This document shows, one piece after another, positions 21,833 to 27,333 of a DNA stretch of 64,000 bases. This DNA is from Alphaproteobacteria bacterium (GTDB taxonomy: Bacteria; Pseudomonadota; Alphaproteobacteria; UBA2966): the NCBI GenBank assembly GCA_964291395.2, contig OZ219858.1, positions 1,184,001 through 1,248,000 of the forward strand, in the 5' to 3' direction. The position numbers and the translations under genes were made by a program. Under the pieces are notes generated by a model that saw only the letters and a program-made list of their open reading frames with translations, searched no databases and was not told the origin of the DNA. Position 1 is the stretch's first letter. The number at the start of each line of letters is the position of its first letter.

Positions 21833-23030
21833 GTGACGGGAGAGGGGTCGGGCTCGAACGTGAATTCACCCGCCAACCGTTCCGGCGGCCCGCGGGCGCG
21901 GCTCTACACCATCCTCGAGTCGCCGGGAGACCGCGACCCGCTCAACCGGATCGTCGATGTCGGGTTGGTGCTGCTGATCGCCTTGAATGTCGGCGCCGTC
22001 GTTCTCGAAACGGTCGAAACCATCGGGAGGACCTACGCGGAACTCTTTTATGCCTTCGAAGCGCTGTCCGTTCTCGTCTTCACGGCGGAATACGGGCTCC
22101 GGGTCTGGGTGTCCGTCGAAAAGCCACAAGCCGCTCCCATCAAGCCATGCGTGCGGCTCCATGGTGACGCCGCTCTGATTGAGCCCTTCTATCTGGCGAC
22201 GTTTATCGGCATTGATCTCCGCTTCATGCGGCTTTTCCGGCTGCTGCGCATCCTCAAGCTGACGCGACATTCCGCGGCGCTCCATGGTGGGGACGGTAAT
22301 TTATTCGGAACGGCGGGCCTTGACCGCATCCGTGACGGTGATGCTCGTGCTTCTCGTGGTGGCTTCGGGACTCATGTATTTCGCCGAGCGGAGGGCTCAA
22401 CCGGAAGCCTTTGCCAGCATCCCGCACGCCATGTGGTGGGGCGTCGCCACGCTCACGACGGTGGGCTTTGGCGACGTCACGCCCGTCACGCCCGTCGGCA
22501 AGGTGCTCGGAGCCGTCGCGATGCTGCTGGGCATCGGCATGTTCGCCATGCCGGCGGGGATCCTGGCCTCCGGGTTCTCCCAGGAGATCAAGAGCCGTGA
22601 CTTCGTCATCGAGTGGCGGATGGTGGCCAAGGTCCCCGTCTTCGGCCGACTCGAGGCATCGCTGATCGCGGACATCGTCTCGATGCTGAAACCGCAGGTC
22701 GCCATCCAGGGAGAGGTCATCGTGCGGGAAGGCGAGCAAGCGGACTGCATGTATTTCATCGCATCGGGCGAGTGCGAGGTCGACGTCTCACCAAAACCCG
22801 CGGTCCTCGGTCCGGGCGACTTCTTCGGCGCGATCGAATTATTCAAACACGACCGCCGTCACGCCACCGTTCGCGCCCGCACGACATGCCAATTGTTGAT
22901 GCTGACGGGCGACGACTTCGACGATCTGCTCGGGCGTAGCGAAAACCTGAATCAAGCGATCATGCGGATTGTGAACGATTCGCCGAGTCATCAGGGCCAT
23001 CGAAAAATTGGCAACGATGCCAATGAATGA
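21833..23030 (+). pseudogene. cyclic-nucleotide-gated K+ channel (6TM + cNMP domain), frameshifted
   Basis: S4 RFMRLFRLLRILKLTR lies in one frame; pore TTVGFGD and the cNMP domain lie in another (22284-23030); additional disruption in S3 near 22160. Confidence 0.85.
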
Positions 23031-24495: not shown

Positions 24496-25155
24496 CTAGC
24501 ACCCGTCTCGCGGGCCACATGACTCGGGCCGCTCTTCGCGGGCGCGGCCCCACGCGTTCCAGTGTGTCCGGTCGCGGGCGGGGAGGCGTGGCGCCGGACG
24601 GAACTGGTCTCCGGTGAAGTAAGCGATGGGAAGCAAGGCACCTTGCGTCATGCCGTCTGGGATTTCCAGGAGTGTCGCGGCTTCGCGCTCGTAGGTCAGG
24701 TGAAGAGAGGTCCACGCCGAGCCCACCCCTCGAGCGCGAAGCGCCAGCATCAACGACCACGCGGCCGGCAAAATCGACCCGTACATGGTAGCTTGGGCCA
24801 TTGGTGACGCATTCTCCACCCGCCCTTCGATGCACGGGATGACGTGCACGGGAACCTCGTGGAGGTGCTCGGCGAGGTAAGCGGACGACTCGAACACGCC
24901 CTGGCTATAGATCCCGCGCATGCGTTCCAAATGCGCGGCTGCTGCCTTCCTGTAAAGGTCGGCCAACCCCGCACGTTTTGCGGCGTCCGTCACCACAACA
25001 AAATGATACAGCCCCCGATTGCCGCCGTTGGGTGCCTGGAGCGCAATTTCGATACACCGCTCGATGACCTCGGGTTCGACAGGACGCGTTAGATCGAGGC
25101 GCCTGCGGACCGAACGGGTGGTGGTCAGGAGGTGGTCGACGGTGGCGAGGTCCAT
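24496..25155 (-). CDS. nitroreductase family protein
   Basis: Motifs LLTTTRSVRRRL, QAPNGGN, ALRARGVGSAWT. Confidence 0.9.
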   Translation of the reverse strand: MDLATVDHLLTTTRSVRRRLDLTRPVEPEVIERCIEIALQAPNGGNRGLYHFVVVTDAAKRAGLADLYRKAAAAHLERMRGIYSQGVFESSAYLAEHLHEVPVHVIPCIEGRVENASPMAQATMYGSILPAAWSLMLALRARGVGSAWTSLHLTYEREAATLLEIPDGMTQGALLPIAYFTGDQFRPAPRLPARDRTHWNAWGRAREERPESCGPRDGC

Positions 25156-25204
25156 ACCGCTTCTTCCCGGCGCTTGGGGTCATTGGTCGCGATCCCTACC
25201 GGCC

Positions 25205-25316
25205 GCGCGCGCAGCTCAGGTGGATAGAGCGCCCCGTTGTCGTGTGTGCGGAGAGAATGCCCGTCGCGACTGTATCGGCGGGGAGGTCGCGGGTTCAAGT
25301 CCCGCCGCCGTGTGCC
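25205..25316 (+). ncRNA. tRNA-like RNA with extended (42-nt) anticodon arm
   Basis: D arm GCTC-AGGTGGATA-GAGC; stem CCCCG/CGGGG; variable region AGGTC; T arm GCGGG-TTCAAGT-CCCGC; imperfect acceptor stem. Confidence 0.65.
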
Positions 25317-25353
25317 GCCCTCACCTTTCCTCGCTGCTACCCGCCCGCCCGCG

Positions 25354-25440
25354 ATGCGGAAGGCGCATCTACAAGAGAAGATAGCGTCGATGCGGGAGCG
25401 CAGGGAGGTGTTGGAGGATCATCGGCGGACGCTATGGAGG
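25354..25440 (+). mobile_element. transposase fragment (IS1182-like)
   Basis: HLQEKIASMRERREVLEDHRRTL resembles the helix preceding the SLTDPD motif of IS1182 transposases. Confidence 0.35.
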
Positions 25441-25692
25441 CGGGAGGTTGTTGTTGCTGCTGAACTCGGTCGGCGCCCCGCTCGCTCATATCGAAGTGGC
25501 TGATATCCGAAAATGGTGGATAACGGACCAGGGACGGGCGCCTGAGGGTGGAGCTGAAGTGAACGGCCCGCTCGGACAGCTCTATGGCGCGTTGCATGAA
25601 CCGATCCGCTTCCGTGGTCACGAGCAGTCTCCGATGATTACTCTTCAGCGGCCAGCGAGGACAGGGCGGCCCAGGGAGTCGGACACGAACAA

Positions 25693-26763
25693 TCACGGAC
25701 TCGAGCCGCCATACTCCAATACCGGATTTCGATAGACGGTGTGGTAGTGTCCCTGGCCGCCGCGGGCACCGCCGCCTGTCGAGAGGAGTTCGATGATCAC
25801 GGTGGGGCCTTGCACGATCATATAGGTAGGGGTGTTTACGTCGTTGGCGCCGGTCCAAGCGAAGGTTGTCCGATCCAGTTCGGCTTCAAGCGCTGCCAGT
25901 CGACGCTGAGCGTTCCTGGAAGGCTGAATCGAGACCCACTGATTTATGGCGGCCAGAAGCAGGCCCTTCTGGTTCGCGGTCATGTCGGCGGCGCTCACGC
26001 CGATCGCCGGAGGGACGACACCGTCTTTGCCGGGGCCGGTGAGCAGCTTGTCGGGCACCTCGCCGGCATCGGCCGAGGCCTTCTGCGCGGCGTCAAGTGC
26101 GTGGTAGAGCGCGTAACCTGCCCGATGCATGTCGACCACTACCTCGTACGCCACTCCGTCGTAGGAGAAGACTGCCGGCTCGGTGCCGATAAAGCTCGGG
26201 GACATGGAGATGATGCGGTTGCCTTCCACGGACAGGTTCAGCGCCAGGTGATGCCCGCCGAATTGCCATCCCCAGGGAGATGTCGCGGATGGGGTGCCAA
26301 AGAATGAGATCCAATAGTTCTCAGGCGACCAACTCCACAATCTGGCCGTCCAGGCATCGCTCAGAAAGGCTTCGGCGACCAGGGCGTCCATGACCCTGCG
26401 ATAGCCCGCCTCGCTGAGCGAGGACGTCAGGAAATCGAAGAGCAGCCTGCGCTGATTGTCCGACAGCTCGCCGATGGACATTCCGGCGCGCTTGACATAC
26501 CTGGCGGGAAGGTTGGACCAGCCCGCGCGCTCCTTGGCGTCGAGGTCGTACATGAGCTGCGCCCTGGTCGCCTCGTCGAAGCTGGCGAGAAACACTTGGG
26601 CGGCCTGCAGCGAGGCTGCGGCGCTGGCCTCGCCAAAAGGCGGATTGTACTCCGGGACCGGCACCAGTTCGGCATGTTCGTGGGTGGGCGCCTCATGCGC
26701 CAGACAAGGCAGAGCCAAGCTAAGCGCCAAAACCACCACAGCCAGGTACTGCAGTGTTTTCAC
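25693..26763 (-). CDS. DUF3500 domain secreted protein
   Basis: Signal peptide; motifs WSNLP, WGWQFGGHHLALN, PSFIGTEP, HYHTVYR. Confidence 0.85.
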   Translation of the reverse strand: MKTLQYLAVVVLALSLALPCLAHEAPTHEHAELVPVPEYNPPFGEASAAASLQAAQVFLASFDEATRAQLMYDLDAKERAGWSNLPARYVKRAGMSIGELSDNQRRLLFDFLTSSLSEAGYRRVMDALVAEAFLSDAWTARLWSWSPENYWISFFGTPSATSPWGWQFGGHHLALNLSVEGNRIISMSPSFIGTEPAVFSYDGVAYEVVVDMHRAGYALYHALDAAQKASADAGEVPDKLLTGPGKDGVVPPAIGVSAADMTANQKGLLLAAINQWVSIQPSRNAQRRLAALEAELDRTTFAWTGANDVNTPTYMIVQGPTVIIELLSTGGGARGGQGHYHTVYRNPVLEYGGSSP

Positions 26764-26891
26764 GAGAGTTCCTCCCTTTGTGCGGGTTTTCGGTGAGAGG
26801 CCGTCACAGGATCTGAAGAACTACAATCTCGACCCACACCGGAAAGATAACCCACAGGATGTACCAGCCGCGCGTTTCTCCTCCAACCAGG

Positions 26892-27195
26892 CTACATCTC
26901 GAGCAGCTTTTGGCCCGCCTTAGTCGGCGTGCCGTCCCGCATCACGTACATGTAGAGAAGGGACCGCGACACGCCGAGATGCTGCGCGAGAGCCTGGACG
27001 TCAGTCTCGCGGTCGGCCATGGCGCTCATCGCGATGCGCATCATCGCCTGGTCCATCTTGCGCGGCCGCCCGCCTGCGCGACCGCAAGCCCGGCTCTGGT
27101 GCGCTCGGCAATGAGCTCGCGCTCGAACTCGGCGAGCGACGCGAAAATCCCGAACACGAGCCGGCCGTTCGCTGTCGTGGTGTCGATCAGAGCTC
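26892..27195 (-). pseudogene. serine resolvase/invertase C-terminal remnant, frameshifted
   Basis: IDTTTANGRLVFGIFASLAEFERELIAERTRAGL in one frame, GGRPRKM and an HTH in another; catalytic N-terminus missing. Confidence 0.85.
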
Positions 27196-27333
27196 ACGGC
27201 GGGTCCTGGCCGATACCCGCGGCTCGTGAAACAGAATGGCCAAAAGTGTTCGAGGCCTACAGGAGGCCTCCGGACGATTGCCCCCTGCCGCCCGGTCATT
27301 CGTCATGACAGACGGGATGCCGGTCTTACAAGA

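Follow-up and report, generated by a model that had tools for sequence, protein, structure and literature searches.

We describe a family of transfer RNA (tRNA)-Arg-like genes, carried on plasmids and genomic islands, in which a long hairpin is grafted into the anticodon arm, and we identify the most divergent of the copies collected in a 64,000-nucleotide (nt) stretch of an alphaproteobacterial genome of lineage UBA2966 (assembly GCA_964291395.2, contig OZ219858.1, forward-strand positions 1,184,001 to 1,248,000; hereafter the window). This copy, a tRNA-Arg-like RNA gene with an extended anticodon arm, occupies positions 25204-25313 on the plus strand, from acceptor position 1 to the discriminator. 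We read it, with a probability of about 0.6, as the relic of a lost mobile element, because it has no accompanying winged helix-turn-helix (wHTH) gene, carries a bulge in its acceptor stem and a C at position 8, has an eroded hairpin and diverges between strains at the rate of spacer DNA; it would have been left behind when the rest of the element was deleted. The loss of its partner and the defects unique to it suggest that the window copy may no longer work. A preliminary description of the window had recognized the tRNA-like RNA and its long helical arm; the plasmid and island family, the linkage to a wHTH gene, the derivation from tRNA-Arg, the lost partner gene and the unique defects were not foreseen in it.

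The family was found by a pattern scan of one genome per species, in which a tRNA-Arg-type D arm had to be followed 45-75 nt later by a T loop. The scan returned 55 loci, and 25 of them, nearly all from Alpha-, Beta- or Gammaproteobacteria by record title, held 28 copies of the long-armed architecture; the remaining loci were tandem tRNAs, assembly gaps, archaeal intron-bearing tRNAs and other insert-bearing bacterial tRNAs. From 27 pattern-found copies, with the window left out, we built an alignment and a covariance model, R1, and tested the structure (acceptor, D, extended anticodon, hairpin-foot and T helices) for covariation. Standard pairs filled 95.4% of the pair cells in these 27 copies, compared with 38-55% when partners were slid by one to three columns, and both-side changes occurred in 15 of 27 pairs; none of 500 shuffles reached the observed values. 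The long arm, for which the preliminary description had suggested collecting homologs and testing covariation, is conserved with covariation across the family.

R1 scores the 44 other copies that we collected at 84.3-114.6 bits (training members at 97-115) and the window copy at 74.5 bits (E 4e-18, model positions 1-111), and other tRNAs in the searched loci reach at most 64.2 bits. The window gene is the top match in its own genome, followed by the host tRNA-Arg genes TCT (63.0 bits) and CCT (62.6 bits). Because it scores between ordinary tRNAs and members, we take it to be a homolog, the most divergent among 45 copies. In all 44 others the insert sits at the same place. Rfam holds no model for the long-armed family, its generic tRNA models matching members with a long insertion, and a full-text literature search found no description of such a long-armed tRNA-like RNA; the family thus appears to be undescribed. 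E. coli genomes and plasmids, queried with one enterobacterial member, gave no match.

Insertions in the anticodon region are also seen outside the family. Bacterial and phage tRNA-like genes with insertions of 30-60 nt, which score 52-64 bits with R1, occur at loci L020, L021, L022, L031, L045, L047, L048, L051 and L065 and in viral contigs L242, L243, L246 and L249. These non-members include sequences from Planctomycetes, Flavobacterium, Thermaceae and Acidobacteriaceae, as well as forms of about 122 nt in large viral contigs with 43% G+C.

Intact members, whose anatomy we counted in 42 distinct sequences with the window excluded, are ordinary in their acceptor stem, D arm and T arm. Their anticodon stem gains a sixth pair, C-G or U-G, beyond which the 5' strand bulges out as 5-7 single-stranded nt of the form U-U-N-C-G/U-A, resembling the 5' side of an arginine anticodon loop. 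Directly after this bulge, where position 38 would come, starts a hairpin of 28-44 nt, with zero or one nt (a G) opposite. The insert forms a closed single hairpin in 38 of the 42 (median z -2.27, with 28 of 42 below -2, relative to mononucleotide shuffles); its sequences vary widely, and its foot pairs covary.

The marks of arginine identity run through the whole family. Table 1 of PMC9976931 gives A20, C35, U/G36, G2-C71, C3-G70 and A/G73 as the bacterial arginine identity determinants, and the part of that source cited here treats A20 as the chief bacterial mark. Among the relatives, C3-G70 is present in 42 of 42, G2-C71 in 36 of 42 and an A after the D-loop GG in 40 of 42; the bulge C is invariant in 43 of 43 sequences, and the base after it is G or U in 41 of 42 relatives. 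The triplets at the bulge end are TCG (18), TCT (8), ACG (7), GCT (3), GCG (2) and one each of CCT, ACT, CCG and TCA; arginine anticodons (NCG or YCU) thus make up 37 of the 42, the other five being GCT, ACT or TCA. An A follows the triplet in 37 of 42. N73-CCA is encoded in 19 of 42, and a further 12 carry CCA at another place in the 5-nt tail. Because the D loop and a portion of the T arm were prescribed by the search pattern, their invariance is to some extent built in for the first 27 sequences, which tells against too ready a reading of these marks; all 14 further distinct copies, which were reached through the wHTH protein or through plasmids and are free of pattern bias, have A after the D-loop GG. 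Judged by sequence, the family derives from tRNA-Arg. A first triplet base left free beside a fixed second base is the pattern expected if recognition by arginyl-tRNA synthetase (ArgRS), or by a reader of the same bases, were under selection.

A different use of the same anatomy would be that these are intron-bearing tRNA-Arg genes, from which some unknown bacterial activity removes the hairpin at 37/38 so that the mobile element supplies a decoding tRNA-Arg, mostly UCG. Once the hairpin was excised, a 6-bp stem would carry a 7-nt loop, U-U-N-C-G/U-A-G; an anticodon stem of six pairs would itself be a departure. The graft point is exactly 37/38-like, and the kept arginine identity marks, the arginine triplets and the encoded N73-CCA of the family would suit such a product, as would a host genome whose four tRNA-Arg isoacceptors include none for UCG, but 5 of 42 triplets are not arginine. 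Introns in tRNA genes are group I introns in bacteria and bulge-helix-bulge introns in archaea and eukaryotes, and like them the family has extra sequence 3' of the anticodon, at or next to position 37/38. Unlike them, it has bacterial hosts together with an insert of about 35 nt in the window, far below the roughly 200 nt or more that a group I intron needs (the preliminary description had reasoned correctly here), and it lacks the two 3-nt bulges, 4 bp apart, of a bulge-helix-bulge, the hairpin beginning right after the A with a 5-7-nt bulge and 0-1 nt opposite. No Rfam ribozyme or intron family, Intron_gpI among them, was matched, and the genome yielded no RtcB, although a splicing endonuclease was not searched for. 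The hairpin is structurally conserved: its stem covaries, and an apical G/A-C-A-A/C recurs (seen by eye, uncounted), which suits a working domain more than a discarded one. We regard splicing to a decoding tRNA as improbable.

The second constant of the family is its partner. A wHTH open reading frame (ORF) of about 140-230 amino acids (aa) lies directly upstream of the RNA, on the same strand, in 22 of 24 loci, the other two holding fragments only (a 25th locus is cut by a contig end). The protein matches HTH_36, DnaD_N and the N-terminal domain of RepC; its PHROGs matches fall on the winged-helix N-terminus of replication initiators 175-455 aa long, and NCBIfam and PADLOC return winged-helix matches that are all below threshold. 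Across the family, the wHTH gene of most loci ends 5-14 nt ahead of the RNA; in 16 of the first 18 loci the stop codon stands 6-14 nt from the RNA, with a gap of 68 nt in one further locus and an ORF call that overlaps the RNA in another. Two tandem RNA copies, about 45 nt apart, follow a single wHTH gene at loci L015, L017 and L042 (Phenylobacterium and a related metagenome-assembled genome).

In five of the pairwise comparisons between loci, homology runs through the wHTH gene and ends at the RNA 3' end or a few nt from it. Such a boundary, the constant gap of 6-14 nt in 16 of 18 loci and the integrase fragment or resolvase gene that lies just downstream in some loci would be expected of an RNA with no function in trans, acting as a cis element at the 3' end of the wHTH messenger RNA, where RNase P would set its end or stability, or as an attachment site at the level of DNA. 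That account leaves the conserved long hairpin, the invariant C and the arginine marks unexplained, and the tandem RNA copies of three loci also stand against it; duplication of an attachment site, sought as repeats of the RNA gene in 33 loci, was rejected after yielding only one 13-nt match at chance level. We consider it very improbable.

Members are mobile. The RNA is carried by four plasmids, of Caulobacter (298 kb), Acidisoma (13 kb), Xanthobacter (30 kb) and Methylocaldum (26 kb), and because those of Xanthobacter and Methylocaldum have their own RepA, the module is cargo and not the replicon. A role for the wHTH protein as Rep, with the RNA as primer or origin, was dropped in view of the separate RepA on these two plasmids and of an E. 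coli ColE1-type plasmid that carries a wHTH gene as cargo. On three plasmids, gaps in the locus tags at the place of the RNA are an unverified hint that an RNA gene was annotated in the original records. Chromosomal copies lie amid integrase fragments, resolvases, toxin-antitoxin pairs, methylases and ArdC, and one sits between mraY and a Mur ligase gene. Among 150 other genomes of the host's class (one per genus), a single one has a member. Matches to the wHTH protein came from 351 plasmid records and from a single one of 50,697 phage records, and only 1 of 12 pattern matches in viral contigs is a member, on which grounds a phage origin was rejected. At one locus (L062:5626-7908, plus strand) a gene for a 760-aa AAA_13 ATPase, with a match to the PADLOC candidate system PDC-S06, lies 15 nt behind the RNA, a single case.

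Aligned to R1, the window copy retains most parts of this plan. Its acceptor 5' strand and position 8, CGCG(C)GCG and the base after it (25204-25212), form with the 3' strand a stem of 7 bp plus one bulged C (25208), and a C stands at 25212 where U8 is expected. The D arm (25214-25230) reads GCTC (25214-25217)-AGGTGGATA-GAGC (25227-25230), with A20 at 25224. The 5' side of the anticodon arm (25232-25243) comprises CCCCG (25232-25236), a U25237 paired to G25278 and the bulge UGUCGU, within which U25240, C25241 and G25242 make up the anticodon-like triplet. After the insert come an unpaired G25277, G25278, CGGGG (25279-25283) and the variable loop AGGTC (25284-25288), together spanning 25277-25288, and then, from 25289 to 25313, the T arm GCGGG-TTCAAGT-CCCGC (25289-25305), the acceptor 3' strand CGCCGTG and the discriminator T. 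No CCA is encoded, the tail being TGCCG. The arms and variable loop listed in the preliminary description, as well as the C at position 8, the bulged acceptor stem and the missing CCA, are all present; it was also right that the arms are not permuted as in YrlA. The ends of the gene lie at the acceptor stem.

The two anticodon stem strands are separated by 42 nt, about 35 more than a cloverleaf loop would hold, and no decoding-type 7-nt loop is present. Within them, a 33-nt insert (25244-25276) is homologous to the family hairpin: five foot pairs of the conserved type are kept (G25244-C25276, G25246-U25275, U25247-A25274, G25248-U25273 and C25249-G25272) and the distal part is eroded. The closing pair is a compensated flip of the family's C-G to G25244-C25276, and small insertions have accrued as well. 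Other family marks persist as C25241 and G25242 (the invariant C, then G/U), A25224 (A20) and C25206-G25310 (C3-G70), while the triplet is followed by U (A in 37 of 42 relatives) and pair 2-71 is G-U (G-C in 36 of 42).

Generic tools see this gene only at the edge of detection. The Rfam tRNA model (RF00005) matches 25205-25312 in a local scan with 31.3 bits (E 7e-05), above the cut-off of 29, with a 38-nt insertion in the anticodon loop; a genome scan ranks it last among 47 tRNA matches, and an Rfam scan of the whole window at gathering thresholds does not report it. Of the further checks that had been suggested, ARAGORN called neither a tRNA nor a transfer-messenger RNA (tmRNA) in the window, and Rfam scans of the window gave no significant match besides tRNA (no intron, ribozyme or Y RNA). 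The extra imperfect helix that had been proposed in place of the loop stands in part: helices GTCGTG/CGCGAC and GCGG/CCGT appear in the minimum-energy fold, but that fold is no stabler than shuffles (z -0.37 for 25200-25320) and pairs the insert differently from the pairing conserved in relatives. Taken alone, the 33-nt insert has z +0.55, against a family median of -2.27, and its ends do not close as a hairpin. What lifts the object above chance is its homologs, not its folding energy.

The low Rfam score, the missing ARAGORN call and a fold no stabler than shuffles might instead betray a chance tRNA-like sequence or a host tRNA gene broken by a random insertion or an element scar, the latter having been offered in the preliminary description. 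This we find scarcely credible, given 44 other copies with covariation and the insert at the same place. When the entire gene and each half were compared by BLAST with the 50 host tRNAs, the only matches were generic arm stretches of 18-23 nt, and 23 nt is thus the most that any host tRNA has in common with it; the insert and its flanks are single-copy in the genome, apart from a 72-nt deaminase fragment described below; and the host's tRNA set is already full with 50 genes. A 251-nt query against 40 relatives gave only tRNA-arm matches of 24-42 nt, in 7 genomes, and an intact tRNA with identical flanks was found neither among these 40 relatives nor in five same-genus genomes.

The locus lacks the partner and bears signs of rearrangement. 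The host genome (4.16 Mb, 3 contigs, 64% G+C, 50 ordinary tRNA genes by ARAGORN) contains no wHTH homolog, in the window or elsewhere, in tblastn searches with 18 query proteins at E 1e-2. The RNA gene lies in a 537-nt spacer between a nitroreductase gene (24496-25155, minus strand), its divergent upstream neighbor, and a DUF3500 gene (25693-26763, minus strand). Homology to the nitroreductase locus runs up to 25167 and family homology begins at 25204, and the junction between them (25168-25203) has too little room for a wHTH gene. The interval 25168-27333 is unmatched in five same-genus genomes, and the sole same-genus nitroreductase ortholog sits in another context, its homology stopping at 25167. 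In the right spacer, just downstream of the DUF3500 gene, lies a rearrangement scar, a 72-nt fragment (25561-25632, minus strand) that is 98.6% identical to the 5' end of a gene resembling a deaminase by its HAE and PCxxC motifs, as judged by eye; contig C1 carries the full copy (1035072-1035608). With the homology break on the left and this fragment on the right, rearrangement joints flank the RNA gene. No promoter- or terminator-like site flanks it, the single terminator-like match in 24950-25750 falling inside the nitroreductase gene, and no Abi_2 or DUF3800 gene adjoins it. A linkage to DUF3500 was also considered and dropped, with the RNA found in 0 of 45 scanned DUF3500 loci (80 fetched).

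Two features of neighboring genes may be recorded here. A nitroreductase paralog (73-74% identity) has one in-frame TAG in both genomes in which it was seen (G000:C1:1963661-1964281 and G003:C102:19105-19725). At 21833-23030 of the window (plus strand), a cyclic-nucleotide-gated ion channel appears to be split over two overlapping ORFs, one with the N-terminal Ion_trans part and the other with the pore and the cNMP-binding domain, which may reflect a frameshift or a start-site artefact.

That the window copy is a relic is argued by defects found in no other member and by its divergence between strains. The alignment column of the acceptor bulge is filled in 0 of 42 distinct relatives, and position 8 is T in 42 of 42. 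A coral-metagenome DNA contig, 97% identical to the window, spans 24800-25363 with the same junction between nitroreductase and RNA, and differs from the window at 4 of 356 coding nt, at 6 positions of the 110-nt RNA and at 3 of 50 nt of the downstream spacer. Unlike a constrained tRNA, the window RNA evolves at the spacer rate over these 13 listed differences in one contig. The changes in the coral strain are 25205 G>A, 25212 C>T, 25232 C>T, 25266 G>T, 25281 G>A and 25313 T>C; in the helices, they turn C-G into U-G once and break the pair C25234-G25281 once. Since the coral strain has U8, the C at position 8 is recent in the window lineage; the two strains appear to share the bulge, at which no indel is listed. 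A contig from an RNA library of the same coral sample covers 24803-25196 only and is uninformative on the RNA gene.

Several observations weigh against the reading as a relic. The strain comparison consists of those 13 differences in a single contig, and one of them, 25205 G>A, makes G2-U71 into A2-U71 in the coral strain, an improved pair. The perfect anticodon stem, T arm and D arm, together with the compensated flip at the hairpin foot, imply long purifying selection in the lineage, so that decay may be recent or the copy may still be working. The junction with the nitroreductase gene is common to at least one other strain, and the orphan state has therefore persisted. Moreover, the closest relative, a copy on the 13-kb Acidisoma plasmid with 93% identity over the 3' 42 nt, shares with the window the acceptor 3' strand CGCCGTG, the flipped pair and the GTATC-GGC foot, and it is the only other copy without a wHTH gene, a different small ORF standing 8 nt ahead of it; together, the two copies might represent a subfamily independent of wHTH.

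On that account the window copy would be a noncoding RNA still at work, an orphan of a wHTH-independent subfamily transcribed from the divergent nitroreductase promoter region. The intact D arm, T arm and anticodon stem, the hairpin foot kept by a compensated flip, the acceptor strand and foot shared with Acidisoma and the junction retained in a second strain would all follow from it, but the bulged acceptor stem and C8 that no other member has, an eroded hairpin and 6 differences in 110 nt of RNA, set against 4 in 356 coding nt, would not. No promoter-like site was found to drive such an orphan, and the supposed subfamily comprises the two lowest scores of 45 copies (84.3 bits for Acidisoma, the second lowest). 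We therefore hold a working orphan, the main alternative, to be unlikely, and retain the view that the window copy is what remains of a lost element.

The setting of the wHTH gene bears on what intact members may do. In a survey of 80 loci found through the wHTH protein, independently of the RNA, the position directly downstream of the gene held the tRNA-like RNA in 19 cases, a conserved hairpin motif with an ORF behind it in 30 (Abi_2 in three of three ORFs scanned, two of them also HEPN), a DUF3800-like ORF in 13 (confirmed in three of three scanned), a second motif in 7 (with an Abi_2 ORF behind it in one of two scanned) and other genes in 11, where three of six scanned were toxins of toxin-antitoxin pairs (ParE-like, Gp49/HigB-like and YhaV); two of these three toxin genes have starts that overlap the wHTH stop by 3 nt. 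Because its homologs precede Abi_2/HEPN, DUF3800 or toxin-antitoxin toxin genes, the wHTH gene leads exchangeable conflict modules, in which the tRNA-like RNA takes the effector or RNA-partner slot. Behind the tRNA-like RNA itself, Abi_2 or DUF3800 was found in 0 of 24 downstream ORFs (17 member loci) and in none of the flanking ORFs scanned.

Structured RNAs are known from modules of this kind. According to the part of a preprint cited here, Abi_2 proteins are toxic RNases that an upstream structured RNA neutralizes in Clostridioides difficile, and the RNA partners of Abi_2/AbiF include the abiF motif and the antitoxin RNA RCd22 (bioRxiv 10.1101/2025.04.15.648962); DUF3800 genes have many associated RNA motifs, the motifs DUF3800-I to -XI being RNAs tied to these genes, as presented in the cited part of PMC5737381. 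The family resembles these RNAs in being a structured RNA of mobile conflict modules, in a slot that in homologous loci holds a motif with Abi_2 or a DUF3800 gene; it differs in that its fold is that of a tRNA, that neither an Abi_2 nor a DUF3800 gene follows it and that no Rfam abiF match was obtained, the comparison with the DUF3800 RNAs extending to that same part of their source.

The motifs seen in the survey deserve mention in their own right. The hairpin motif (…CCCCGGGCGCAURCC-N3-GGCAGAGGCGGGUCCGGGG…) is placed about 10-90 nt past the wHTH stop codon, ahead of the Abi_2/HEPN ORF (L155-L234, for example L186:3005-3065); it has no Rfam identity and could be an AbiF-type RNA partner. A likeness between it and the 3' half of the tRNA-like RNA was seen and judged unconvincing. 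The second motif (GGGAGGAGGCTYTCGCC…) comes after a terminator-like hairpin at seven loci (L157, L158, L161, L162, L177, L180 and L182) from Enterobacterales, Caballeronia and Enhygromyxa, and is upstream of an Abi_2-type ORF in one family-matched case.

We tentatively propose, as possible but doubtful, that the family is a working mimic of tRNA-Arg that ArgRS can charge and whose hairpin blocks decoding, and that it is the RNA half of a new conflict module with the wHTH gene. The gap of a few nt behind the wHTH stop codon suggests that tRNA-processing enzymes probably cut the RNA from a shared transcript; its arginine marks suggest that ArgRS probably recognizes it and may charge it, and the grafted arm would then keep it from decoding. 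Our best guess is that such an RNA would persist as a stable mimic, acting as a decoy or an antitoxin-like RNA against factors that target tRNA, or as an effector RNA, and would form the RNA component of a two-part module with the wHTH gene. The absence of a recurrent gene downstream of the RNA across loci weighs against this proposal, as it leaves the decoy without an identified target. If the family works in this way, the window copy would be a disarmed remnant or an orphan decoy retained by the host. The preliminary description's non-decoding tRNA-like RNA with a D/T elbow is upheld as to its tRNA likeness, elbow and long arm, all conserved in the family, and its non-decoding character is what we would predict.

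Set beside known RNAs, the family is closest to canonical tRNA-Arg (RF00005), with which it has in common the cloverleaf, the D/T elbow sequences, A20, C35, G/U36, G2-C71 and C3-G70, and host tRNA-Arg genes are the next-best R1 matches; it departs from it in replacing the 7-nt loop with a 28-44-nt hairpin after a bulge and in being mobile behind a wHTH gene, and the window copy departs further from any canonical tRNA through C8 and an acceptor stem interrupted by the bulged C at 25208. To our knowledge, non-decoding tRNA-shaped RNAs are rare in bacteria, YrlA and tmRNA being the known kinds. YrlA and other bacterial Y RNAs reportedly carry a tRNA-like module, and the family is like them a probably non-decoding RNA that keeps the tRNA elbow beside a long helical arm, but its arms are unpermuted, its partner is a wHTH gene and it gives no Rfam Y RNA match. 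The host genome (98.1% complete) contains no Ro60/TROVE or RtcB gene that we could find, in agreement with the preliminary description. Unlike tmRNA, which ARAGORN does not find here, the window gene has a full D arm and anticodon stem. In engineered tRNA scaffolds, hairpins grafted into the anticodon arm are said to gain processing and stability; the family shares with these the hairpin in the anticodon arm of an otherwise intact tRNA, and differs in being natural, in keeping an anticodon-like bulge and in its linkage to wHTH.

For the window alone the stakes are small, since its copy is most likely the record of a lost mobile element. The family to which it belongs is coherent, with strong covariation, a fixed graft point in the anticodon arm, arginine marks and a tight gene partner. 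Should its members prove to be decoys or antitoxin-like RNAs, tRNA mimics would join the RNAs of conflict systems in plasmids and phages as a further class, and nature would be seen to use the tRNA scaffold trick itself.

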